Positions 45,281 to 57,047 of a stretch of DNA of 64,000 nt are shown piece after piece. Position numbers and translations under genes: made by a program. Origin of the DNA: Candidatus Omnitrophota bacterium (GTDB taxonomy: Bacteria; Omnitrophota; Gorgyraeia; Pluralincolimonadales; Pluralincolimonadaceae); contig PLNR01000005.1 in assembly GCA_003141835.1 (NCBI GenBank), positions 126,289 through 190,288 on the forward strand, read 5' to 3'. How positions within the stretch are numbered: position 1 is the stretch's first letter; every line of letters begins with the position of its first letter. The notes below the pieces were generated by a model. It had not been told where the DNA came from and made no database searches. It worked only from the letters and a program-made list of their open reading frames with translations.

Positions 45281-46582
45281 TTATTGTTTATCGGCAGTAG
45301 CGTAAAGCTTATCAAGCGGGCTCTGCGGCGCGTTAGAGATATCACGTATAACGTGAGTGTATATCATCGTTGTCTCGACGTGGCTGTGGCCTAAAAGCTC
45401 CTGGACTTCCCTGATATTTACCCCATTTAGCAGTAAATGCGTAGCGAAACTATGCCTTAAAGTGTGAACGGTGGCATGTTTTGCTATTCCCGCCTTTTTT
45501 ACCGCTTCAGACATCGCATCCTGTATTGTTTTTGGGCTCATATAGAAACGTCTTATCTTTCCGGTGTCGCGCTCGGGGGAGAGTTTTGCCGACGGGAAGG
45601 CGAATTGCCATCCGAAATCTTTGACAGCTTTCGGGTACTTGCGTTCAAGCGCGTCCGGCAGCCAGGCTTCCCCGTATCCGGCGGCGAGGTCTTTCTCGTG
45701 TATCTTTTTGACCTCTTTAAGGTGCGCACGCAATTCCGCCTTCAGATATTCCGGTAGGACGGTACTTCTGTCCTTATCGCCCTTGCCGCTTCTTATGAAT
45801 ATCATTCCCGCTTCAAAATCGATATCTTTTACCCGCAAGCACGTCAGTTCGGAAATGCGCATGCCAGTGCCGTATAATAGCTGCAGGATAAGCTTGTCCT
45901 TTCCTGTTACACTGTCAAATATCTCGCGGACCTCACTCTCGGTAAGAACGACGGGAAGTTTCGGGCCGCGTTTCGCACGGACCGCGCCTGCAATATCATC
46001 AAGCCCGATCATGAGCACATCCCTGAATAAGAACAAGAGGGCATTAAAGGCCTGGTTTTGGGAAGAGGAGGAGACCTTCTTTTTAATTGCAAGAAAGCTC
46101 AGGTAATCACGCACATCCTCGCTTGAAAGACCCGATTTTTGGATATCCTTTTTACGGACACCGACTAGATACTCAAAAAAACCTTTTGCCCAGTTAACAT
46201 AAGTGCGCTCAGTCTTGTATGAATAATGTTTAACCCTGATGGCTTTGCCCATCGCGATTATAATAGAAGCAGGATCTGACCTGTCGTTTATCTGGGATAG
46301 GGTTGAATTCGGACCGAGTTTCGCGGCACTCTTGTCAAACTGCTCAAAATAGAGCTTTAAAGCGGTTTCCGCCTGGTTCATCTGCCAGTTCGCGATCCCC
46401 GGGGAATCGGAGAGCTGCTCAAGGAATTTTCGTCTTTTTTCCTGAAAATCCGCGCCCTCATCCTCATCAGAAAAGGCGACGAATTTGCTTACCCAGCGAG
46501 CGTAGAAGGGGGCATGTTTTTCATCGGCAAAGCCTCTTGAAACCAGGAATTTCTGGAAATCAGGCAGGATATCTACAAACAT
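45281..46582 (-). CDS. intI: integron integrase IntI (tyrosine recombinase) with an N-terminal extension
   Basis: Box II HTLRHSFATHLL and the catalytic Tyr region LLGHSHVETTMIYTHV. The IntI-specific insertion is KDLAAGYGEAWLPDALERKYPKAVKDFGWQFAFPS, closely matching IntI1 (LPDALERKYP...). The likely ATG at 46582 gives 433 aa; the ORF is open to 46648. Confidence 0.9.
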   Translation of the reverse strand: MFVDILPDFQKFLVSRGFADEKHAPFYARWVSKFVAFSDEDEGADFQEKRRKFLEQLSDSPGIANWQMNQAETALKLYFEQFDKSAAKLGPNSTLSQINDRSDPASIIIAMGKAIRVKHYSYKTERTYVNWAKGFFEYLVGVRKKDIQKSGLSSEDVRDYLSFLAIKKKVSSSSQNQAFNALLFLFRDVLMIGLDDIAGAVRAKRGPKLPVVLTESEVREIFDSVTGKDKLILQLLYGTGMRISELTCLRVKDIDFEAGMIFIRSGKGDKDRSTVLPEYLKAELRAHLKEVKKIHEKDLAAGYGEAWLPDALERKYPKAVKDFGWQFAFPSAKLSPERDTGKIRRFYMSPKTIQDAMSEAVKKAGIAKHATVHTLRHSFATHLLLNGVNIREVQELLGHSHVETTMIYTHVIRDISNAPQSPLDKLYATADKQ

Positions 46583-46602
46583 TTTTTCTCCCCAAAAGTA
46601 CA

Positions 46603-46628
46603 AAAACCCATAAATTACGAATTCGTAT
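46603..46628. repeat. direct repeat 1 containing perfect 12-bp palindrome TACGAATTCGTA
   Basis: AAAAACCCATAAATTACGAATTCGTAT; palindrome at 46616-46627, just downstream of the predicted Pint start site. Confidence 0.6.
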
Positions 46629-46636
46629 TTCCTGCT

Positions 46637-46664
46637 ATTATAGGCCAAAGGCGAAATCTGTCAA
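46637..46664 (-). promoter_or_regulatory. candidate Pint promoter (TTGACA-16-TATAAT on - strand)
   Basis: Reverse complement of 46659-46664 is TTGACA and of 46637-46642 is TATAAT; reads toward the intI start. Confidence 0.5.
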
Positions 46665-46675
46665 CAAAAATTGTG

Positions 46676-46703
46676 TTGTAAAGTCAGGCGAAAATGGTAT
46701 ACT
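46676..46703 (+). promoter_or_regulatory. candidate Pc cassette promoter (TTGTAA-16-TGgTATACT extended -10)
   Basis: TTGTAA at 46676-46681 and TGgTATACT at 46695-46703; reads toward attI and cassette 1. Confidence 0.45.
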
Positions 46704-46748: not shown

Positions 46749-46761
46749 TTATATGTTATGC
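46726..46761 (+). other. attI recombination site, crossover G|TT in GTTATGC at 46755-46761
   Basis: TTATGC at the start of cassette 1 is the exact complement of R'' GCATAAC in that cassette's attC (47514-47520), as expected for attI x attC insertion. An L-like box CCATAAAC lies upstream. Confidence 0.55.
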
Positions 46762-46778: not shown

Positions 46779-47519
46779 ATGGATGGAATAAAATTGTTTA
46801 AAACTCCGTATAAGCGTCCAGAGAAGTTCTCAAATCCCTATGATCATATCTCAGATAAAGAGCTTAAAGGGGTATTGGATACAGCCGATCTGGATATGGA
46901 TTGGTCTGACTATTGTATAATTTTCCATCTAACTCCTATCAGTTCATACCAAGAATCCTGTTATTTCCTTCCTTTTGCCCTTCAATATATCAATAATAAT
47001 CCGGATAATTCGTTAGATTGCTCTACGGAGATAATCTGGTTTATCTCAGAACATATCGGTAGCTTAAAAAAAGACGGTTTATTTGAAAAATGCGAGGATT
47101 CACTGAAGGCATGTTTAAATACCTGGACAAAAAATTTCGCTGTGGAGCACTTCGACAAGGAAGCCTGCCGTAAAAAAGAATGGGTCATAGATCATGACGA
47201 CGGAGTAGAAAATAGCCAATTACTCATAGAAAGTTTGGATGATATGGTCTTCTATGAATCTTTGGCGAATATTGCTTTTGATTTTATAGCAGAGATCCGT
47301 TCAAGCGAAACAGGCATACAATGCGCCTGGTATTTGGAGCTATGTAATATAAATAAAGTATACAATTGTTGTATTCAATGCGAAAAATTGAAAGAATTTC
47401 TAGCAGATCAAAAATACATAGATCGCTGTTCTGATATAGTTAAAAAAACATCTTTCATGGATCAAGTAACATCTCCCACCTATTGGAACGATGTATGCGG
47501 GAGACTAAATATTGCATAA
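46779..47519 (+). CDS. cassette 1: Cys-rich hypothetical protein (246 aa), AT-rich
   Basis: First ORF after attI, no SD. The stop TAA is embedded in the attC R'' GCATAAC. No recognisable family motifs. Confidence 0.6.
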   Translation: MDGIKLFKTPYKRPEKFSNPYDHISDKELKGVLDTADLDMDWSDYCIIFHLTPISSYQESCYFLPFALQYINNNPDNSLDCSTEIIWFISEHIGSLKKDGLFEKCEDSLKACLNTWTKNFAVEHFDKEACRKKEWVIDHDDGVENSQLLIESLDDMVFYESLANIAFDFIAEIRSSETGIQCAWYLELCNINKVYNCCIQCEKLKEFLADQKYIDRCSDIVKKTSFMDQVTSPTYWNDVCGRLNIA

Positions 47520-47588
47520 CATTTCACTCCAGCGGACGGCGCTGGCATCCTGTTCTAATGTCGCCGCCGCTGAGTTCAAACGTTGGCC
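47514..47588 (+). repeat. attC site 1 (R'' GCATAAC ... R' GTTGGCC)
   Basis: GCATAAC-ATTTCAC-TCCAGCGGACGGCG...TCGCCGCCGCTGAG-TTCAAAC-GTTGGCC. The halves are reverse-complementary with unpaired bases on one arm, as in attC bottom-strand folds. Confidence 0.8.
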
Positions 47589-47599
47589 AAATAAATCAA

Positions 47600-48028
47600 A
47601 TGGATACAAAAACAGAAGAAAGATATGTAAGCATGAGATTAGCACATGGAGACATCACTAACGCAATCGACTTGCTCAATCGTGCCAGAAAGGAAAGTGA
47701 TAACTCCATCAAGTCTACTATAGTTCGGTATTGCATTATAGTATATGCAAAACCCTTTAAAATAAGCAGGGGAATCTTTCACGCCAAATTTATACCACTG
47801 AAGGAAGAAGCAGTTTTCCCTGGTGGAAATACGGATCATAAGGCACTGATTGTTGAGCGCGACGAGAGGATAGCCCACGGCGACATAAAATCGTTTTGCC
47901 CTAAGTTACACTACTGGTCTAGACCCGACATCTTCCCATCGTGCTTAAGTCCTCTCGTCTGTATGACAACATTGACAAACTCATCGACAAGATGTTGGTG
48001 CTATGCGATACCGTTCTGCAGTACTTGA
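47600..48028 (+). CDS. cassette 2: hypothetical protein (142 aa)
   Basis: ATG 12 nt after attC1; no recognisable motifs. Low confidence that this is the frame that is expressed. Confidence 0.4.
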   Translation: MDTKTEERYVSMRLAHGDITNAIDLLNRARKESDNSIKSTIVRYCIIVYAKPFKISRGIFHAKFIPLKEEAVFPGGNTDHKALIVERDERIAHGDIKSFCPKLHYWSRPDIFPSCLSPLVCMTTLTNSSTRCWCYAIPFCST

Positions 48029-48080
48029 CCGACGAGATGAAGACCCTGGAGACCCTGTTTCGCGAACAGATTAAAAACAC

Positions 48081-48143
48081 GCCTAACTAGTGGGTGTAGC
48101 CAATCGCTGATAAATACGGCTCTAGCTGACCATCGTGTTGGCC
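48081..48143 (+). repeat. attC site 2, heterologous type (R'' GCCTAAC ... R' GTTGGCC)
   Basis: Canonical inverse core GCCTAAC, internal imperfect inverted repeats (AACTAG..TAGCC / GGCTCTAG..GTT), 63 bp; differs from the local attC family. Confidence 0.6.
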
Positions 48144-48179
48144 GTAGATATTTAAATAACAATTTGATATAATAAAACA

Positions 48180-48911
48180 ATGAAAACGAATGATACTATG
48201 AAGCATTTACCGGAGCAAGCGTCGAAGGCCGTTGCCCATTATTGGCAAACACGTGCAACTCAACGCAAGAAGCAGGAAAAGAGTGGCAAGGCAGACCAGG
48301 GGTCGCGTAGTGCAGTGACTGGCGGCGCCCATATGGATGGGTTTGTTACCCTTTTTGCTAACCTCATCATGCAAGGAGGTATACCCGAGCGGTTCATTTT
48401 TCGCAAAAAAACCATAGAATTACCAGGCTTTTTCAGGCCGACAAAAGAATGGGACCTGGTGGTTGTCCGGGATCGGGTTTTGATTGCAGCAATTGAAGCC
48501 AAATCACAAGTCGGACCATCCTTTGGAAACAATTTTAACAACCGAACAGAGGAGGCGATGGGCAGTGCGCTTGATCTCTGGACAGCTTATCGTGAAAAAG
48601 CCTATCTTGACAGCCCACAGCCATTTCTCGGTTATTTTTTTATGCTCGAAGACTGCGAAGCGGCTAACCGTCCGGTTAGCGTGCAAGAACCCCATTTCAA
48701 GGTTTTCCCTGAGTTCGTTGGTGCATCGTACATGCGTCGTTACGAGCTTTTCTGCCGCAAACTCGTTTTAGAGCGACACTATACTTCATCAGCATATATT
48801 ACGTCATCAGCAACAGAGGGTGTTCGAGGCGTTTTCAACACACCAGCGCCCGACCTTTCGATAGAACGATTTGCAAAATCTCTTGTTGCGCATGCTACCG
48901 CCGCAAGGTAA
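48180..48911 (+). CDS. cassette 3: putative type II restriction endonuclease (PD-(D/E)xK)
   Basis: VVVRDRVLIAAIEAK fits a D...(E)xK nuclease motif; lies 5 bp upstream of a DNA methyltransferase in the same cassette. A TGaTATAAT extended -10 sits at 48165-48173. Confidence 0.6.
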   Translation: MKTNDTMKHLPEQASKAVAHYWQTRATQRKKQEKSGKADQGSRSAVTGGAHMDGFVTLFANLIMQGGIPERFIFRKKTIELPGFFRPTKEWDLVVVRDRVLIAAIEAKSQVGPSFGNNFNNRTEEAMGSALDLWTAYREKAYLDSPQPFLGYFFMLEDCEAANRPVSVQEPHFKVFPEFVGASYMRRYELFCRKLVLERHYTSSAYITSSATEGVRGVFNTPAPDLSIERFAKSLVAHATAAR

Positions 48912-48915
48912 TTCC

Positions 48916-49854
48916 ATGAAGGCTACCTCACATAGACTCGTAAATGGTGATTCCCGAGATTTATCTTTTTTAGATGACGAATCAGTGCATCTCGTAGTTA
49001 CATCCCCGCCATATTGGAGCTTAAAAAGATATAACGAAAATCCCAATCAGCTCGGTCACATTCAAGAATATGAAACATTTCTTTCTGAAACAGAGAAAGT
49101 ATGGCGTCATGCATTTCGTGTTCTAGTGCCAGGTGGTCGGCTTGTATGCGTCGTAGGAGATGTATGTGTATCACGCCGCAATTTTGGTCGCCACCTCGTT
49201 TTTCCGCTACACTCAGACATAAGCGTTATTTGTCGGAAAATTGGATTTGACAATTTGAATCCTATAATATGGCACAAGATCTCAAATGCGTCTTATGAAG
49301 TGGCAAATGGATCTAAGTTCCTCGGTAAGCCGTATGAACCAAATGCAATCATTAAAAATGATATAGAATTTATTTTGATGCAAAGGAAACCAGGGGGGTA
49401 TCGTAACCCAACTGATGCACAACGCATTGGGAGCAAGATTTCCAAAGTCGACTTTAATACTTGGTTTCAACAAATATGGAACATTCCCGGAGCGTCAACT
49501 AAACATCACCCAGCCCCATTTCCTTTAGAGTTGGCTAACCGTCTCGTGCGCATGTTCTCATTCGTAGGCGATACAGTACTCGATCCATTCTGCGGTTCGG
49601 GAACGACTATGGTTGCAGCCCTGAGAGCAGGCCGCAACAGTATAGGGGTTGAAATTGACCCCGAATATTCACGCATGGTTGCACGAAACTTAAAGGCTGA
49701 AATAGCCAATCTCTTTTCGAATGAATCTTTTATTTTTGAGAAGGCCGTAATAGAACATGATAACCTTATCAGAAAAGACGAAGAAATTTATCAAATTCGG
49801 CCAACAATTCACCGCAGCGGACGGCTTACGGCCGCCGCTGAGTTCAAACGTTAG
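48916..49854 (+). CDS. cassette 3: beta-class DNA amino-methyltransferase (N4-cytosine/N6-adenine), SPPY motif
   Basis: Motif IV VVTSPPYW precedes motif I LDPFCGSGTT (beta-class order). The C-terminus reads through attC3. Confidence 0.85.
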   Translation: MKATSHRLVNGDSRDLSFLDDESVHLVVTSPPYWSLKRYNENPNQLGHIQEYETFLSETEKVWRHAFRVLVPGGRLVCVVGDVCVSRRNFGRHLVFPLHSDISVICRKIGFDNLNPIIWHKISNASYEVANGSKFLGKPYEPNAIIKNDIEFILMQRKPGGYRNPTDAQRIGSKISKVDFNTWFQQIWNIPGASTKHHPAPFPLELANRLVRMFSFVGDTVLDPFCGSGTTMVAALRAGRNSIGVEIDPEYSRMVARNLKAEIANLFSNESFIFEKAVIEHDNLIRKDEEIYQIRPTIHRSGRLTAAAEFKR

Positions 49855-49856
49855 AA
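49799..49856 (+). repeat. attC site 3 (R'' GGCCAAC ... R' GTTAGAA)
   Basis: GGCCAAC-AATTCAC-CGCAGCGGACGGC-TTAC-GGCCGCCGCTGAG-TTCAAAC-GTTAGAA. R'' is the exact complement of the TTGGCC that begins the cassette at 48138. Confidence 0.8.
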
Positions 49857-49915
49857 ATAGAAATTGATATATTTCCCCACCATAAAATATCGATCAGAAT
49901 AAACATAAATAATAC

Positions 49916-49944
49916 TTGACAAACAGAATAATTATACGTATATT
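49916..49944 (+). promoter_or_regulatory. cassette-internal promoter for brnTA (TTGACA-17-TATATT)
   Basis: TTGACA at 49916-49921 and TATATT at 49939-49944; a 17-bp spacer. Confidence 0.45.
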
Positions 49945-49950
49945 GTATGT

Positions 49951-50238
49951 ATGAATCTGATTAGATTCGAGTGGGATGATAGCAAGAGTAAGCAAAATAA
50001 AAAGAAGCATGGCATATCATTTGAGGAAGCGCAGAGCGTATTTTACGATGAGCGCGCTATTCAATATTACGACCCGGATCATTCCAAAGATGAAGACAGA
50101 TTTATAATGCTTGGAATGAGTATCAAAACAAGAGTTCTGGTTGTCTGCCATTGCTATAGGAAGAATGGCGCGAGGGTAAGGATAATATCAGCGAGAAAAG
50201 CCGAAAAAAATGAGGAAAACGAATATTGGAGGAGATAA
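49951..50238 (+). CDS. brnT: BrnT-family toxin (DUF497 ribonuclease)
   Basis: FEWDDSKSKQNKKKHGISFEEAQSVFYD matches the BrnT consensus (FEWDxxKxxxNxxKHGVxFxEA). Confidence 0.85.
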   Translation: MNLIRFEWDDSKSKQNKKKHGISFEEAQSVFYDERAIQYYDPDHSKDEDRFIMLGMSIKTRVLVVCHCYRKNGARVRIISARKAEKNEENEYWRR

Positions 50239-50239
50239 A

Positions 50240-50455
50240 ATGAGAGCACATTATGAATTTTCGAAGATGCGTGGCCGTCGCAACCCGTATATTAAGTATT
50301 TGAAACAGCCTGTCACTATCCGGCTGGACAAGAATACTGTGGCGTATTTCAAGGCGCTTTCTGATAAGGTCGGGATGCCGTATCAGAACCTGATAAACCT
50401 TTATCTAAGGGACTGTGCTTTTTCGCATAAAAAGCTTCATTTGAAGTGGTTGTAG
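50240..50455 (+). CDS. brnA: BrnA-family antitoxin
   Basis: RNPYIKYLKQPVTIRLDKNTVAYFKALSDKVGMPYQNLINLYLRDC matches the BrnA consensus (VTIRLD..YFK...G.PYQTLIN.YLR). A GGAGGAG RBS is present. Confidence 0.85.
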   Translation: MRAHYEFSKMRGRRNPYIKYLKQPVTIRLDKNTVAYFKALSDKVGMPYQNLINLYLRDCAFSHKKLHLKWL

Positions 50456-50463
50456 GGAAAAGT

Positions 50464-50559
50464 ATGAGAAAGATCAAATTAACCGAAGAGGAAAGAGAAA
50501 TCGAAGAAGCTTTGTTGAAAGATGAATGTGTTGATATTGGCAGAAATGAATTTAAATAA
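50464..50559 (+). pseudogene. 31-aa remnant resembling the N-terminus of a BrnA/RHH-type antitoxin
   Basis: MRKIKLTEEEREIEEALLKDECVDIGRNEFK is a typical antitoxin N-terminal motif (LTEEExE..L..GE) without the DNA-binding remainder. Confidence 0.3.
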
Positions 50560-50560
50560 A

Positions 50561-50608
50561 TAGCTGATGCTATTGCTTCACGGAAAAGCGCAATCAAATT
50601 CAAACTTT
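50561..50608 (+). repeat. decayed attC-like relic (TTCAAAC followed by TTT instead of GTT)
   Basis: GCTGATGCTATTGC..GCGCAATCAAATTCAAACTTT retains the TTCAAAC spacer and a partial stem of the local attC family but has lost the crossover G. Confidence 0.3.
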
Positions 50609-50621
50609 GCAGGAAATCATC

Positions 50622-50882
50622 ATGAAGGACTGGGATTACAGAGTTATAAAAAAGTATGATGCCAAATTAGGAGATGAGTCCCATCAGATTCACGAGGTTT
50701 ATTACCGAGAGGATGGAACCATAGATGCTTGGACGGAGTCGCCAGTGCAGCCTTATGGGGATACGCCAGAAGAGTTGCGGGAGGATATTAGGTTTTTTCT
50801 TCAGGCATTCCATCATCCAGTTTTAAAGTTACAATCAGTCGATGGTAGACAAAATCTCATTGAAGATGCCGATGTGCTATAA
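50622..50882 (+). CDS. small HicB-like (UPF0150 fold) protein
   Basis: VYYREDGTIDAWTESPVQPYGDTPEELREDIRFFLQAF resembles the HicB N-terminal core (EDGGY..P..PG..GDT.EEA). No HicA partner was found. Confidence 0.35.
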   Translation: MKDWDYRVIKKYDAKLGDESHQIHEVYYREDGTIDAWTESPVQPYGDTPEELREDIRFFLQAFHHPVLKLQSVDGRQNLIEDADVL

Positions 50883-50905
50883 TAATATCTTCTTTAAACT
50901 AAGAA

Positions 50906-51379
50906 ATGAACAAAGAATCAAAAGGTAATGCCGGAATGTCGCTGCTTAAGATAGTCCAAGTAATTTGGACTATACAATTGATCCTCGTTTCCTCCATAGT
51001 AATATTACATCCGCTTTTTTCCATAGTTAAGATCATAGTCCCTTTGTTCGCTTTATCGTTCGTATATTCGACCCTAGGCATAATCTCAAATCGCAAGCGT
51101 GCCTGGATAGCATCAATATTTTTACTGACCCTGTATTGGTTAATAATGGGTTGGCAGGCAATAGTAAGTTTCTTCTTAAATAATTATCTTTTCTTCACTA
51201 ATCATCCGCTTTATATAGATTCACCGGCTACGATCCTGGTTGTATACGCGGGCGCAATATTTGGCATACTGCCGGCGGGGATATTGACATTACTTTATAT
51301 CTTCAATTACAGGCAGATCAGGACTAATTGGGGTCAGCCGTTGAGTTCAAATGTTTTATTCGAGAAGGGGGTCTCATGA
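50906..51379 (+). CDS. 4-TM integral membrane protein of unknown function
   Basis: Four hydrophobic helices; lies 23 bp downstream of the HicB-like ORF with no attC between them. The C-terminal 8 aa are a translation of an attC relic. Confidence 0.55.
   Translation: MNKESKGNAGMSLLKIVQVIWTIQLILVSSIVILHPLFSIVKIIVPLFALSFVYSTLGIISNRKRAWIASIFLLTLYWLIMGWQAIVSFFLNNYLFFTNHPLYIDSPATILVVYAGAIFGILPAGILTLLYIFNYRQIRTNWGQPLSSNVLFEKGVS
51335..51359 (+). repeat. attC half-site relic (conserved R'/L' arm only)
   Basis: CAGCCGTTGAGTTCAAATGTTTTAT differs at 2 positions from the family arm GCCGCTGAGTTCAAACGTT; no complementary left arm was found. Confidence 0.4.
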
Positions 51380-51978
51380 AATTCAAACATATCGTTACGA
51401 TTCTTGTTCTTGTCATGGTATCCAGCATCGCCTTGGCGGATCAAGAGGGTCCTAATGAACTGTATGTCACGGGAAACGGCCCATTTTATTTAAAGTGTAT
51501 TCCCGCCGAGGCACTTAGAGATCGGGAGAAGGGTAAGACGATGGTATATCTTGCGGGAAAAGAAAGCGATACCCTCATCCATACCTTCGACTGGTATTCA
51601 CCGAGAGCATTCATTACCGGATGGGGAGGCGGCACGTCGGTTATTCGATTGGGACCCTGGCCCCGCGGATCCAAAGCGTCGGCAAGTGATCTCGGAATCG
51701 CCTTTTATCGAGATGAAAAGTTGGTGGCAAGATACTCGACATTGGATCTTGCGGGTAACGAGGGGAATGTCTCCGTATCCGTTTCCCACTACGGGGTGAT
51801 CAAGGATGTTATCGGGATTGTGAGAGTGTACGAGAAGAAGGGTGAAGATATTCTATCTGCCGATCCAGAATATGCATTCGAGATCGTACTGCATGATGGC
51901 AGAAGGCTTCTCTTTGATATCCATACAGGCAAGAGAGTGAAGCTAACAGACAACATGTTCACGATATTGGATAAATAA
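51376..51978 (+). CDS. secreted hypothetical protein (200 aa)
   Basis: Signal peptide MKFKHIVTILVLVMVSSIALA|DQ; no family motifs. Confidence 0.6.
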   Translation: MKFKHIVTILVLVMVSSIALADQEGPNELYVTGNGPFYLKCIPAEALRDREKGKTMVYLAGKESDTLIHTFDWYSPRAFITGWGGGTSVIRLGPWPRGSKASASDLGIAFYRDEKLVARYSTLDLAGNEGNVSVSVSHYGVIKDVIGIVRVYEKKGEDILSADPEYAFEIVLHDGRRLLFDIHTGKRVKLTDNMFTILDK

Positions 51979-52103
51979 ATTGGGGATAATTAAGGTGACA
52001 GCATACTTAATTCGGTTAAGGGCAGAGTGGGGTGGCACTAAGTGACGCGTCCCCATAAGATACGTTCTTTTTGGTGTCATAGTGGCAAAATAATAAATAA
52101 AAT

Positions 52104-52179
52104 ACCTAACATTTCACTCCAGCGGACTGCGCCAGCCATCCGTTATCAAGGGCTCGGCCGCTGAGTTCAAACGTTCGAT
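52104..52179 (+). repeat. attC site 5 (R'' ACCTAAC ... R' GTTCGAT)
   Basis: ACCTAAC-ATTTCAC-TCCAGCGGACTGCGCC...GCTCGGCCGCTGAG-TTCAAAC-GTTCGAT; same family as attC1 and attC3. Confidence 0.8.
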
Positions 52180-52181
52180 GT

Positions 52182-52688
52182 ATGAGGTATGAGATGGAAG
52201 AACTCGACGACAATGCGCAGCAACGACGCGAGACGTTTGCCCGCTACGGGCTCGCCATGTACCATGCGCAGTGCGTTGAAAAGAGCCTCGCAATCCTGGT
52301 TTCCAGTGTTTTTAATAAGGAGTTCCTACCGAGCAACCCCAATCGGCGCGAAGAGATTCAAGATGAGGTGTTTAGCAAGACCATTGGCAGATTGCTGACC
52401 CGAATGAGGAAGCAGATCGCTGTCCCGACGAAACTAGACAGGACGCTGGATGATGCCTGGCAGAAGCGGAACTGGCTCGCACACGAGTATTTCTGGGCTA
52501 GGGCGGGAGAGATTATGACCACGCGCGGCCGAGACAAGATGATTCGGGAGCTTACCGAGCTTTCGGACCTCTTCTCCAAAGTGGACGCCCATCTTGTGTC
52601 CATCTATGAGAAGTGGAACAAGAGGGCCGGGGTCCCGCAGACGGTGATTGAGCAGAATCTGAGGAAGCTGATCCAAGACAACGAGTGA
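52182..52688 (+). CDS. HEPN-domain protein (Rx4HxY motif), solo
   Basis: KRNWLAHEYF = R-x4-H-x-Y, the HepT/HEPN RNase signature. GC-rich codon usage unlike the neighbouring cassettes. The start may be the ATG at 52194. Confidence 0.55.
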   Translation: MRYEMEELDDNAQQRRETFARYGLAMYHAQCVEKSLAILVSSVFNKEFLPSNPNRREEIQDEVFSKTIGRLLTRMRKQIAVPTKLDRTLDDAWQKRNWLAHEYFWARAGEIMTTRGRDKMIRELTELSDLFSKVDAHLVSIYEKWNKRAGVPQTVIEQNLRKLIQDNE

Positions 52689-52691
52689 GGC

Positions 52692-52723
52692 GTCGAACCA
52701 GCGCCTGAACGGTACGGCGCTAG
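52692..52723 (+). repeat. stem-loop / truncated attC-like element
   Basis: GTCGAAC-CCAGCGCC-TGAACGGTAC-GGCGCTAG. GTCGAAC is 6/7 complementary to the TTCGAT that begins this cassette (at 52174), but no GTT core follows. Confidence 0.3.
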
Positions 52724-52724
52724 A

Positions 52725-53606
52725 ATGATTAATATGAAAGCAAGGAAGATTGGACTGGTATTTCTAATTTTGATGGCGGGTATCTCGGGTTTTACCTTTG
52801 CAAATGAACAACCTATAATTGGTAAACTTGGCAAGCCTGTCGGCACAGAACTGACAATCGAAGGGACATTTCAAGGCGGCAAGAACAGTTGGATTCTCGT
52901 AACCAAAGTAAATGAAAAGGAACTCTCTTCTCCCGTATTAATTGCTACATCTCTTGACACTTTTGAAGCTATTAAGACGGACGCTGGCTGTCGATTCAAG
53001 GGCATGGAAGTTACCTATGTCGTCAAGCCGGTCATAGACCCCACAACTGGTAAGCAAGGTCAACAAGCTGCACCCGGCAGGCATCTTGCTTTTAAGGTGA
53101 CCAAAGTCCTCGTCCCTAAAGGCGTCAAAATTAGAAAAGAAGAAGAAAGCAACAATCTGATTTCCTGGGGAGAGGGTAAAAACGGAATCTCCTGCGGGAT
53201 TTCCCTTAGTAAGCCCAGCTATGTATTAGGAGAGGACGTCGAGGTGTCTATATTCCTCAGGAATAACTGTAACCGGGAACTAAAATGCAATGTTCGGGGT
53301 ATCGGGTCATGGCGCAATATAGAGAATGGCGCTATGTGCATGGATCTTGTATTTAATGAGGTTGGCGACCGGCGGTACAATGGGACAGAATACACTGTTC
53401 CTAATGGAAAAGTTTGCATGATACTTGTCCAAAAGTTCCATACGCGCCCTTTAAATAATCCCATGAGCGACCTGCATTTCACTCCAGGCGAGAAAAGTAT
53501 CATTGTTCAATGTGATCCGCGGTTTGAAGGGAACGAGTTGTCTGGCATTTATTCGGGGATAGCTACTGTAGAAGTTGTCGAATTAGAAGCTGGGAATAGC
53601 CGCTGA
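52725..53606 (+). CDS. secreted hypothetical protein (293 aa)
   Basis: Signal peptide MKARKIGLVFLILMAGISGFTFA|NE; several Cys residues. The stop TGA lies inside the conserved attC arm. Confidence 0.6.
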   Translation: MINMKARKIGLVFLILMAGISGFTFANEQPIIGKLGKPVGTELTIEGTFQGGKNSWILVTKVNEKELSSPVLIATSLDTFEAIKTDAGCRFKGMEVTYVVKPVIDPTTGKQGQQAAPGRHLAFKVTKVLVPKGVKIRKEEESNNLISWGEGKNGISCGISLSKPSYVLGEDVEVSIFLRNNCNRELKCNVRGIGSWRNIENGAMCMDLVFNEVGDRRYNGTEYTVPNGKVCMILVQKFHTRPLNNPMSDLHFTPGEKSIIVQCDPRFEGNELSGIYSGIATVEVVELEAGNSR

Positions 53607-53621
53607 GTTTAAACGTTCAAT
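53598..53621 (+). repeat. attC half-site relic (AGCCGCTGAGTTTAAACGTTCAAT)
   Basis: Matches the family R'/L' arm with one substitution; the left arm was not identified. Confidence 0.45.
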
Positions 53622-53636
53622 ATAAAGGGAGTTAAT

Positions 53637-54260
53637 TTGAGGTCCGTCGTACTGATACTTGTGTTTGTTACCATTGTATCTTTCTTGGTATATCGGGCTT
53701 TGTGCCCACAGCCGTGTTCGGGAACGTGGTTTTGGGAGCGAATTCTAACCCCTTACTCATTCATCGTTGATGAGAACAAGACGCAGATCACTTTCGTCTG
53801 GGTTGGGACCGATACACGTGAGTTTTTTCGAGTGTCCCGCGCTGCCGTGACCGTCTCCGGCCCAGAGTCGATCAAGAACCACATCGAACGTCTAATCGGG
53901 TACATGGAAGGCGAGACCCAGCAATGGGGACGAGTTGTTGGCAAGTCGTATGAACGCGACCTGCAAATATTGACTTTGGTTGATATGGGAGCGAATCCTG
54001 TCGCATGGCGAGCATGGTGGACCCAGAACAGAAGATTGTTTGTTGGTTCTCCCAGTGCCTACGAGGAACTGCGGAAAGATCGCATTGCCAGGGATGTCGA
54101 ACAATACGGTATATCAGAAAGGGCCAAATCCGAGTTGCTTTGGGGCAAAGAATATCGCAGGGTGAGGATTCTGTGCTGGTCGAGCTTGGTAACGGCATTG
54201 ACCTGCTTCATCCTGGCGCTCCTCATAAGTGTGAAGCAGTTCATAAAGAGAAGGCGATAA
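53637..54260 (+). CDS. hypothetical protein with N- and C-terminal TM segments
   Basis: TTG start 8 nt after AAAGGGAG; hydrophobic N-terminus VVLILVFVTIVSFLV and C-terminus LVTALTCFILALLISV. Confidence 0.45.
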   Translation: MRSVVLILVFVTIVSFLVYRALCPQPCSGTWFWERILTPYSFIVDENKTQITFVWVGTDTREFFRVSRAAVTVSGPESIKNHIERLIGYMEGETQQWGRVVGKSYERDLQILTLVDMGANPVAWRAWWTQNRRLFVGSPSAYEELRKDRIARDVEQYGISERAKSELLWGKEYRRVRILCWSSLVTALTCFILALLISVKQFIKRRR

Positions 54261-54261
54261 T

Positions 54262-54786
54262 ATTAAGACAAAGATACTGTTTCTTATCGCTATAATTTGT
54301 TTTCTTCCTGCAGCCCACGTTCATGCAATTAATGAAGATGTTAAGCGTTTAATTGCTGAAGATGTTCTTTCCCGAATAGAACCCGATTTTTATTTTTTCA
54401 AAGAAAAAGCACAAAATGTTGAAAAGCTCTTTAAGGATTGTGATTTTCAAGAAGTTGATTTAAACGATGACGGAAAACCAGAAATTATTGTAAAAGAAAA
54501 TTGGCTCTCGGAAGGCAATGATGGATTTCCAAAAGGGCGTAGTTTTGTTCGCAGCTCTCAAGATCAAGGCTACTATTTCATATATTCAGTTTTGAATGCT
54601 AAGCCCAAATATATAGGTTGTATTGAAGGGGGCTCTTGGGAAGCTCTATCAGTAACAAGCAACGGTTTTAAAGATATTAAGACATATCATCGTATGGGTT
54701 ATGATGAGTGGATAGTCAGTGTGTACAAATATAATGGAGATAAATACAAGCTGGCGTCTCAAGTTACTGAAAAAGGAGAGGAATAA
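54262..54786 (+). CDS. AT-rich secreted small protein ORF lacking a canonical start codon (possible ATT start or pseudogene)
   Basis: Own translation of frame 1 from 54262 gives IKTKILFLIAIICFLPAAHVHA|INEDVKRLIAEDV...KYKLASQVTEKGEE with no stop; a signal-peptide-like N-terminus and an upstream AAGG. The ORF track only shows the TTG-initiated tail 54592..54786. Confidence 0.35.
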   Translation: MKTKILFLIAIICFLPAAHVHAINEDVKRLIAEDVLSRIEPDFYFFKEKAQNVEKLFKDCDFQEVDLNDDGKPEIIVKENWLSEGNDGFPKGRSFVRSSQDQGYYFIYSVLNAKPKYIGCIEGGSWEALSVTSNGFKDIKTYHRMGYDEWIVSVYKYNGDKYKLASQVTEKGEE

Positions 54787-54804
54787 TTACATTAAAGGAG
54801 CCGT

Positions 54805-55266
54805 ATGAAATACCTTAAATATCTCGCTATCGGCGCAGCAATAGTCTTGGCATGCGCCGCGGTATGCCATTTTACCGGGGCGAATAACGCCAGCATGCCG
54901 GCTGCCAGGCTCGTGCCGGGTGACATAACATGGAAGGCCGACCCCAAACTGCACGGGCTGGAGACCGCGGTCCTGGCAGGGGACCCAAGCATTGCGGCGC
55001 CATACACCCAGCGCATCAGGATACCCGCCAATACCATCCTGAAACCCCATTCGCACCCGAATAAGGGAAGGATGGTTACCGTACTGTCCGGGACTTTCTA
55101 TTTTGGCTACGGCGATAAGTTCGACGAGACGAAGCTCAAGAGGCTCCCTCCCGGGAGCTTCTTTACCGAGCCGAGCGGGATGCCGCACTATGCGGTGGCC
55201 AAAGAGGGGGATGTAGTCCTCCAGCTTAACGCTATCGGTCCTGACGGCATGGTATACGTAAAATAA
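54805..55266 (+). CDS. secreted cupin-fold protein
   Basis: Signal peptide plus two-His cupin-like motifs (HSHPNKG ... PSGMPHYAV); GC-rich. Confidence 0.55.
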   Translation: MKYLKYLAIGAAIVLACAAVCHFTGANNASMPAARLVPGDITWKADPKLHGLETAVLAGDPSIAAPYTQRIRIPANTILKPHSHPNKGRMVTVLSGTFYFGYGDKFDETKLKRLPPGSFFTEPSGMPHYAVAKEGDVVLQLNAIGPDGMVYVK

Positions 55267-55317
55267 TTGAAAGAAAATCCCGCCATTTTGCGTCTATAAC
55301 TATGTCCTATAATATTA

Positions 55318-55388: not shown

Positions 55389-57047
55389 ATGTTAAGAAGC
55401 GATAGGGTCAAGAAAGGCCTCGAGAAGGTCGGAAGTCGTTCGCTCATGTACGCCACAGGCATGACGAAGTCCGAGATGGAGCGGCCGTTCATCGGCATCG
55501 CGTCCAGTTTCACGGACCTTGTGCCGGGCCATATCCATTTGCGCGAGCTTGAGCGCTCGATCGAGCACGGGATCTACGCGGCCGGCGGCACCGCCTTTGT
55601 CTTCGGCATACCGGCCATCTGCGACGGCATAGCCATGGGCCATTTGGGCATGCATTGCTCGCTTCCTTTGAGGGAGCTCATCGCCGATTCGGTCGAGATG
55701 GTTACGACAGCCCACGCTTTGGACGGGCTCATATTGCTTACGAATTGCGACAAGATCACCCCTGGAATGATGATGGCGGCGTGCAGGATGAATATCCCGG
55801 CTATCGTCGTCACCGGCGGGCCGATGCTTTCGGGCCGTTCGGGGATGAAACGCCTCTCGCTCGTCAAGGATACGTTCGAGGCGGTCGGAAGGCACAGGGC
55901 AGGAGAGATCACCAGGGAAGAGCTTGAAGAGCTCGAGTGCAGCGCTTGCCCGGGCGCGGGCGCCTGCCAGGGCCTTTATACGGCGAATACGATGAGCTGC
56001 CTCTCCGAGGCGCTCGGTATCGCAATGCCGGGCGGGGCTACGGCCCTCGCGGCATCGGCTAAAAGAGAGAGAATAGCATATTTAAGCGGCGAGCGTATCG
56101 TCGAGCTCGTCAAGAAGGATATAACACCTAAAAAGATCCTGACCCCGAAAGCGATCGAGAACGCGCTGCGCGTCGATATGGCGCTCGGAGGGTCGACGAA
56201 TACCGTTTTGCACGTCACGGCAATCGCGCATGAGCTTGGCATAAAAATGCCGCTCGATATCTTCGATAAGATAAGCCGGGAGACGCCGCATATCTCGGAC
56301 ATACTGCCTTCGGGCAAATATTTCATGGAAGACCTCGAGTTCGCCGGCGGCATTCCTGCGGTCTTGAAGAGGCTTAAACCGGAATTGAGCAACCTCCCGA
56401 CGGTCAGCGGCAGGACGATCTACCAGATCGCCGACGCCGCGCGCATAGACGACGAGGAGGTCATCAGGCCGTTGAACAGGCCGTATCATAAAGAAGGAGG
56501 TATAGCCGTCCTGAAGGGCAACATTGCCCCGGACGGTGCCGTAGTCAAACAGAGCGCTGTCCAGGAGAAGATAAGGCATTTCATCGGAAAAGCGAAATGC
56601 TTTAATTCCGAGGAAGACGCGATGAAGGCTATCATGGCGAAGAAGATAACCGCAGGCGACTGCGTCGTCATCCGCTATGAAGGTCCCAAGGGCGGGCCGG
56701 GTATGAGGGAGATGTTATCCCCGACCGCGGCCATCGTCGGTATGGGATTAGCCGATAAAGTCGCTTTGATCACAGATGGAAGGTTCTCCGGCGGAACACA
56801 GGGGCCGTGCATCGGGCATATAGCGCCTGAGGCGGCCGAAGGCGGGCCTCTCGCCGCGATTAAAGACGGCGATACGATCGAGATCGACATCAACAAGAGA
56901 AAGCTCGAGTTGAAGGTCTCGAAGGCCGAATTGACTAAACGGATGAGATCAATCAAGGCGCATAAGCCGAAGATAACGACGGGCTACCTCGCGCGTTACG
57001 CGAAACTCGTCACATCTGCGAGCACCGGCGCCGTTATGAAAGGTTAA
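55389..57047 (+). CDS. ilvD: dihydroxy-acid dehydratase
   Basis: [16 protein letters not shown] and Fe-S ligand region CPGAGACQG. Confidence 0.9.

Follow-up and report, generated by a model that had tools for sequence, protein, structure and literature searches.

Restriction-modification (R-M) systems carried by integron cassettes have already been recognized, and the basic finding of one is therefore ordinary. Restriction systems of types II and IV have been described in the cassettes of sedentary chromosomal integrons, some of them equipped with their own promoters, in work that centers on the arrays of Vibrio and other gammaproteobacteria (bioRxiv 10.1101/2024.07.02.601686). Here, we analyzed a stretch of 64,000 nucleotides (nt) from a Candidatus Omnitrophota bacterium (GenBank assembly GCA_003141835.1, contig PLNR01000005.1, positions 126,289 to 190,288 of the forward strand), referred to as the window, in which a restriction endonuclease gene and a DNA methyltransferase (methylase) gene lie downstream of an integron integrase gene. 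The cassette that carries them is likewise compact and streamlined, and it differs from the published defense cassettes in residing in a Planctomycetia-type integron. We consider it probable (roughly 0.8) that the third cassette of this short sedentary chromosomal integron is a complete type IIP R-M system with its own expression signals. No description of this particular R-M cassette was found in the literature. All coordinates are positions in the window.

The closest described endonucleases are those of the XhoI/PaeR7I type, with which the window enzyme shares a Pfam family (PF04555). It is 49% identical to the PaeR7I-like enzymes found on about 110 small mobilizable plasmids of Pseudomonas, Aeromonas, Klebsiella, and Enterobacter. 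In these plasmid systems, the methylase gene precedes the endonuclease gene and encodes a 554-amino-acid Eco57I-like (gamma-type) enzyme, whereas in the window the endonuclease gene comes first and is followed by a gene for a 312-amino-acid beta-class methylase with an SPPY motif. The window pair thus departs from the plasmid systems in both gene order and methylase class. At the plasmid loci, represented by L086 (NZ_CP137509.1, 19806-22211), the PaeR7I-like endonuclease and its upstream methylase adjoin an abortive-infection gene. For the window methylase, the nearest solved structure is TTHA0409 of Thermus thermophilus HB8 (PDB 2zie, 2zif, and 2zig), which has been cited as a dimeric beta-class methyltransferase (PMC7544214, PMC10406627) and for which neither paper gives a sequence specificity. 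The two proteins have the SPPY and F/AGxG motifs in common, and the window methylase differs in its C-terminus, which is encoded by the attC recombination site of the cassette.

A further comparison concerns expression. In R-M systems governed by a controller (C) protein, such as PvuII, AhdI, and Esp1396I, the first gene of the operon containing the endonuclease is leaderless, a theme of PMC2175313, PMC2275141, and PMC2691842. The window locus, in contrast, has no C gene; the gene predicted to be leaderless is that of the endonuclease itself, with the methylase gene presumably downstream on the same transcript. On leaderless cassette genes, nothing was found in the literature beyond a general remark in PMC2945992.

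Identity of the R-M Genes

The first gene (48180-48911, plus strand) encodes a 243-amino-acid type II restriction endonuclease of the XhoI/PaeR7I family. The protein matched the Pfam XhoI profile PF04555 with 311 bits (cutoff 25; E-value 3e-93) over profile positions 1-190 of 191, and it also matched the REase_II model of PADLOC. The open reading frame (ORF) contains VVVRDRVLIAAIEAK, and its close homologues are named "PaeR7I family" by NCBI. A first-pass annotation, made from the window sequence alone, had proposed a PD-(D/E)xK-type endonuclease for this frame, and the profile matches together with the conserved residues D92, E106, and K108 bear this out. The same annotation had placed the catalytic aspartate in an RDR motif (D98), which is not where conservation lies. 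When the window endonuclease was aligned with 28 representatives at 34-52% identity (29 sequences in all), 15 positions were invariant, including D92 (in WDL) and K108, and E106 was retained in at least 90% of the sequences; D98 was not conserved. We therefore regard D92, E106, and K108 as the putative catalytic residues.

The fold predicted for the endonuclease agrees with this assignment. An AlphaFold2 (AF2) model, with a predicted local distance difference test (pLDDT) score of 92.9, contains a beta-beta-beta-alpha core in which D92 lies directly before the strand formed by residues 93-97, while E106-x-K108 falls within the strand 100-110, which is followed by a long helix. In the model, this layout is that of PD-(D/E)xK nucleases. 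Foldseek comparison of the model with the PDB returned weak matches (best E-value 0.03), yet the list was dominated by PD-(D/E)xK nucleases, among them the R2 endonuclease domain, Can2, BstEII, Nt.BspD6I, FokI, SgrAI, Bse634I, RecE, and MGME1. A PDB search with the endonuclease sequence gave no match.

The second gene (48916-49854, plus strand) encodes the 312-amino-acid methylase. It matched N6_N4_Mtase (PF01555) with 143 bits (cutoff 26.7; E-value 2e-41) and carries an SPPY motif IV at residues 30-33 and an FCGSG motif I at residues 229-233. The position of SPPY N-terminal to FCGSG is the motif order of the beta class, in agreement with the amino-methyltransferase class that had been proposed from the sequence. 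Residues 6-264 aligned with PDB 2zie (TTHA0409) with an E-value of 5e-117 and about 68% identity, as read by eye from the alignment. The two genes are separated by 4 nt (48912-48915, ttcc) between the endonuclease stop codon TAA and the methylase ATG, not by the 5 bp first reported, and this spacer contains no Shine-Dalgarno (SD) sequence.

By analogy with its family, the endonuclease would be expected to cleave a palindrome that lacks methylation, with CTCGAG as the most likely site, and the methylase would protect the host DNA. SPPY is a motif of N4-cytosine enzymes (PMC10406627), which suggests N4-methylcytosine as the modified base. Methylation of CTCGAG is reported to take different forms in different organisms, namely N6-methyladenine (m6A), 5-methylcytosine (m5C), or N4-methylcytosine (m4C).

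Cassette Boundaries and the attC Site

The two genes occupy a gene cassette of 1713 bp (48138-49850, plus strand), which extends from the TT of the upstream core site to the G of its own R'. The upstream core site, GTTGGCC (48137-48143, plus strand), is the R' of the preceding site, and the crossover falls at G48137|T48138. At its 3' end, the cassette is closed by a 58-bp attC (49799-49856, plus strand), with R'' GGCCAAC at 49799-49805 and R' GTTAGAA at 49850-49856. The TTGGCC at 48138, with which the cassette starts, is the reverse complement of the first six bases of its own R'' and pairs with it exactly, so the perfect complementarity noted in the first-pass annotation was confirmed. Such a cassette start originates in the R' of the circular form, and the whole core site GTTGGCC is likewise the exact reverse complement of GGCCAAC. 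Of the limits given in that annotation (48138-49856), the start stands, and the end is corrected to the strict point of recombination, G49850|T49851. The cassette is economical throughout: two genes lie in 1.7 kb, with 42 nt of 5' sequence, the 4-nt spacer, and no 3' untranslated region.

Several properties identify 49799-49856 as an attC. Folded as DNA, its bottom strand reached −12.7 kcal/mol (z = −2.9), and 4 of 200 shuffled sequences folded equally well. The site has the form R'' (RYYYAAC)...R' (GTTRRRY), except that the last base of R' is A rather than Y; this base comes from the next cassette. Its columns could all be aligned with those of 17 further attCs belonging to this family, drawn from the window and from the homologous loci L025, L081, L083, and L085. 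A covariance model built from these 18 family attCs found only three sites in the window, with 62.8 bits for the attC of the R-M cassette; the three are training members of the model, and the search shows only that no others of this type exist there.

Comparison with two other loci locates the boundaries to the nucleotide. L085 is a 1.9-kb contig carrying the closest endonuclease in the protein collection searched, 98% identical, in another context. Its identity with the window begins exactly at G|TTGGCC, preceded in L085 by the tail of another attC, and it stops at the G|TT of R' (49850|49851), beyond which the two sequences diverge. In L025, an uncultured Planctomycetia contig, the R-M pair again stands between G|TTGGCC and GGCCAAC...G|TT, and the attC is nearly identical in the window, L085, and L025. 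The array of L025 also supplies the rule behind the pairing of cassette ends: in eight of nine consecutive pairs of attCs, the R' of one site and the R'' of the site after it are reverse complements, and the exception, the ninth pair, was accounted for by an extra attC located with the covariance model. The argument from TTGGCC and GGCCAAC thus rests on a rule that is valid within this attC family. At the level of sequence, the cassette boundaries 48138-49850 are proven by the comparison with L085 and L025, and the occurrence of the R-M pair with identical ends in these other contexts argues for its independent mobility. With an integrase gene and an attI upstream, a closing attC, and homology breakpoints in both L085 and L025, the proposal that the pair forms a single integron cassette held.

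The upstream end is the weaker of the two. The preceding cassette (cassette A; 47583-48137, plus strand) carries a 163-amino-acid ORF of unknown function with no Pfam match, which is frameshifted near 47932-47947. The ORF is intact in the metagenome contig L081, whose version gave tblastn matches to the window in two frames. The site that should close cassette A (48081-48143, plus strand; R'' GCCTAAC...R' GTTGGCC) is degenerate and forms no hairpin. Tested as a normal attC, these 63 bp did not fold (z = +0.2), and the attC covariance model missed them at E-values up to 10; an ordinary attC at 48081-48143 is rejected on these two grounds, and no functional upstream recombination site was found at this position in the array.

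It is consequently conceivable that the mobile unit in the window is a fused double cassette (47583-49850), consisting of the frameshifted 163-amino-acid ORF and the R-M pair, whose intervening attC has decayed. Besides the missing fold and the failed detection, the other end of such a unit fits: cassette A also starts with TTGGCC (47583-47588), which pairs perfectly with the R'' GGCCAAC, whereas the pairing of TTGGCC with the weak site's R'', GCCTAAC, is imperfect. The cassette A sequence upstream of the R-M cassette is common to the window and L081-L084, and the two blocks are adjacent in L081-L084. However, in both L085 and L025 the R-M cassette stands by itself and follows another attC, and it occurs with the same scars in many phyla. 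The L081 version of the intermediate site folds somewhat better, if weakly (z = −1.25), and the imperfect pairing of GCCTAAC with GTTGGCC amounts to one true mismatch and one G-T pair only. We regard a fused unit as a plausible but clearly less probable account than a separate R-M cassette bounded by 48138 and 49850.

The 3' end of the methylase gene is tied to the attC. The stop codon TAG (49852-49854) lies inside R'. The methylases of most relatives end in ...RPAKKxLE-TAG; in the lineage of L085, this TAG has become TCG and the ORF enters the attC. Relative to L085, the window has in addition a 25-nt deletion between two ATTCGGCC repeats that shifts the methylase frame, so that attC sequence supplies the final 16 residues (TIHRSGRLTAAAEFKR) and the stop is the TAG in R'. 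With this 16-residue tail in place of the usual AKKxLE-stop, activity of the methylase in this host is not assured. One might accordingly suppose that the system is decaying or inactive, for example because the methylase tail is crippled or the endonuclease silenced, and that the array holds a stored cassette rather than a working defense. The loss of the conserved C-terminal residues through the deletion, the frameshift in the neighboring cassette, and the clear truncation of two homologous loci (L036 and L074) would fit such decay. Against this, both ORFs are full length and keep every family-invariant residue, and the methylase is intact across residues 6-264, the whole part that matches the solved structure. 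Joint intactness favors function, because an active endonuclease combined with a dead methylase would be lethal. We judge an inactive system to be improbable and retain the reading of a complete R-M system.

Distribution among Homologous Loci

A genome scan found close relatives of the endonuclease in at least 522 species genomes; the counts below refer to the best 80 loci among these (L001-L080). The record titles of the 80 loci come from a dozen or so phyla, including Nitrospirota, Thermodesulfobacteriota, Planctomycetota, Verrucomicrobiota/Lentisphaerota, Acidobacteriota/Aminicenantes, Methylomirabilota, Acetothermia, Chloroflexota, Hydrogenedentota, Krumholzibacteriota, and others. A homologous methylase follows the endonuclease in 79 of the 80, with identities to the window proteins of 61-84% for the methylase and 71-79% for the endonuclease.

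Traces of the cassette ends accompany many of these pairs. In 22 of 78 loci (7% expected by chance), GTTGGCC with at most one mismatch is retained some 42 nt ahead of the ATG. In most relatives, the R'' of the attC overlaps the methylase stop codon; GGCCAAC overlapping the stop as TAG|GCCAAC was counted in 27 of 73 loci, where 3% would be expected. Complete attCs follow downstream in about ten loci, and elsewhere the scar leads straight into other genes or a terminator. In L049, L057, L072, L065, and L074, for example, a vestigial TAG|GCCAAC is followed directly either by the ATG of another gene (MTILDRIV...) or by a terminator hairpin and rRNA-like sequence. R-M units that bear scars without a visible attC or array suggest, from their sequence, that they were inserted or fixed outside integrons. 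None of the 80 loci had an integron integrase within 6 kb, a distance that is uninformative for long arrays, as the example of L025 illustrates. Many close homologues (e.g., L082, L083, and L085) are on contigs of about 1.8-1.9 kb, which is about the length of the cassette and consistent with assembly breaks at repeated attCs on both sides.

The window and L025 also permit a comparison of cassette and host. Their ilvD genes, located at the same array end, are 89.5% identical, and both arrays use the same attC family, while their endonucleases are 73% and their methylases 80% identical. As the R-M genes are less alike than ilvD, the related hosts of the window and L025 carry different variants of the cassette.

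Expression Signals

In the 42 nt before the endonuclease gene, a promoter scan of the region found TAGATA-17-TATAAT, which matches the consensus at 10 of 12 positions and has the additional TG of an extended −10. The −35-like hexamer TAGATA lies at 48145-48150 and the extended −10, TGaTATAAT, at 48165-48173 (hexamer TATAAT 48168-48173), both on the plus strand. The −10 ends 6 nt before the ATG at 48180, exactly as first reported. This candidate sigma-70-type promoter would begin 7 nt past the recombination point. A canonical −10 spans positions −12 to −7; with the 6-nt spacing, +1 thus coincides with the A of the endonuclease ATG, and transcription is predicted to start at or next to this A, giving a leaderless mRNA.

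The geometry recurs in the relatives. Of 67 evaluable loci, 40 have TGnTA in register, the −10 ending 6 nt (30 loci), 7 nt (two loci), or 9 nt (eight loci) before the ATG, against a background frequency of 0.002 per position. The endonuclease start codon is ATG in 61 of the 67, and an SD is lacking. When the loci are aligned by their −10, the family consensus reads GTTgGCC, 2 nt, T(T/G)GAAA, a spacer of 17 nt (ending GAAtC-TGa), and TAnAnT. Pairwise identity is 0.57 in the −35 block, compared with 0.35 in the spacer and 0.43 at third codon positions. Within L001-L080, a conserved GAATC block that immediately precedes the TGn of the −10 has a pairwise identity of 0.59 versus 0.43 at third codon positions, which exceeds what a sigma-70 promoter would be expected to need.

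We considered whether the endonuclease is instead translated from longer transcripts, arising from the promoter Pc or from read-through, by SD-independent initiation on an A/U-rich region, with TTGAAA...TGnTA otherwise used or inherited. A promoter-like site does lie in attI (TTGTAA-16-TGnTATACT, 46676-46703), no terminator-like site was found on the plus strand between it and 48138, and the 40 nt before the window ATG are very AT-rich. Yet the fixed 17-nt spacer and the 6-nt (or 9-nt) distance to the ATG are kept in several phyla and in many loci that are not AT-rich, the −35 block is better conserved than the spacer and third codon positions, and many copies have neither an attC array nor promoter context upstream. 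Expression from longer transcripts alone therefore appears unlikely, and a leaderless endonuclease mRNA is the arrangement that we judge most likely from these sequence comparisons. The possible leaderless promoter put forward in the first-pass annotation thus gains comparative support, its geometry being kept without an SD across loci of several phyla.

The methylase gene shows a different arrangement. It has no SD-like motif upstream in 68 of 79 loci, and in 59 of 79 the gap after the endonuclease is 4 nt. A conserved methylase promoter inside the endonuclease gene was not found: no TAnnnT stood in register in more than 28% of the loci, and promoters matching 9 of 12 positions were almost absent inside the endonuclease gene across loci. 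A separate methylase promoter within the endonuclease gene, in the style of SalI, was rejected for lack of any conserved internal promoter. Nor is there a third ORF in the cassette; with only 42 nt between the cassette start and the endonuclease ATG and 4 nt between the two genes, there is no room for a C protein, and a controller gene is absent. Translational coupling is the simplest reading of the methylase signals. Given the 4-nt gap and the lack of a ribosome-binding site and of its own promoter, the methylase would most likely be translated by termination-reinitiation.

The Integron Platform and the Rest of the Array

The integrase gene (45281-46648, minus strand; likely start ATG 46582) is divergently oriented and lies 1.5 kb upstream of the R-M cassette. 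Its product matched the integron integrase model TIGR02249 with 397 bits (cutoff 265) as well as PF00589 and PF13495. The ORF has about 110 residues N-terminal of the segment that the integron-integrase model covers (match 133-448 of 455). Shortly before the likely ATG, at 46664-46637 on the minus strand, is a promoter sequence that fits the consensus at all 12 of 12 positions, TTGACA-16-TATAAT. The array starts at the attI core GTTATGC (46755-46761, plus strand), which is the reverse complement of the R'' GCATAAC (47514-47520) of the first attC, and finishes before ilvD at 55389. It consists of small plus-strand ORFs with a G+C content of 36-48%, lower than the 52-60% of the flanks. A scan for folding R''...R' pairs found three strong attCs, at 47514-47588, 49799-49856, and 52104-52179, which have AACATTTCAC.CCAGCGGAC...GCCGCTGAGTTCAAACGTT in common.

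The cassette that follows the R-M genes (49916-50455) carries a BrnT/BrnA toxin-antitoxin pair (PF04365, E-value 2e-30; PF14384). Upstream of brnT, a promoter close to the consensus, TTGACA-17-TATATT, places the end of its −10 6 nt ahead of the ATG at 49951, a leaderless geometry like that of the endonuclease gene. Farther along (49851-55300), the rule that R' complements the next R'' is broken: the R' GTTAGAA is followed, at the next attC of the family type (52104), by the R'' ACCTAAC. No attC was detected between the BrnTA pair and 52104, nor from 52179 to ilvD. Beyond the R-M cassette (49851-55300), several of the cassette boundaries are thus missing or of another type. Pfam scans of the other cassette ORFs matched only BrnT/BrnA and a cupin, and when the remainder of the array was compared with the 80 loci by blastn and tblastx, it gave nothing beyond attC repeats and the ilvD of L025.

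Discussion

The gene identities, the breakpoints shared with L085 and L025, the folded attC, and the conserved spacing of the promoter-like elements are the observations on which the reading of a complete, mobile R-M cassette with its own expression signals is built. Some results weigh against it, beginning with the unfolded upstream site and the altered methylase tail described above. In this AT-rich region of the window, promoter-like sites are no more frequent than chance (15 found, 14.8 in shuffled sequence), and TGnTA is out of register or lacking in 27 of the 67 evaluable loci. The window shows no depletion of CTCGAG (42 sites, versus 51 expected; ratio 0.82), so the sequence gives no hint of the specificity. 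Finally, an operon with the endonuclease first and no separate methylase promoter leaves the protection of a naive host unexplained.

These features could be combined into the picture of a "plug-and-play" R-M unit built for host-independent expression, in which a promoter with an extended −10 abuts the recombination point, the endonuclease mRNA is leaderless, the methylase is coupled without an SD, and its stop codon overlaps the attC. We offer this picture tentatively, as possible though rather doubtful. A leaderless endonuclease mRNA would in such a unit need no pairing with the anti-SD. If true, the picture would explain why close relatives of the pair are present in at least 522 species genomes and, within the best 80 loci, in a dozen or so phyla, in many cases as lone units that bear cassette scars but lie in no obvious array. 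A further problem would then be how an endonuclease-first operon without a controller could be established safely.

With respect to the array itself, the window offers a clean two-gene defense cassette, proven by its breakpoints, in a chromosomal integron of the Planctomycetia type. The R-M pair is widely spread and may be useful for tracing how cassettes move between distant lineages. Its conserved signals make it a testable case for the expression of mobile defense genes regardless of host and array position and, by the same signals, for how an endonuclease-first operon avoids killing a new host.

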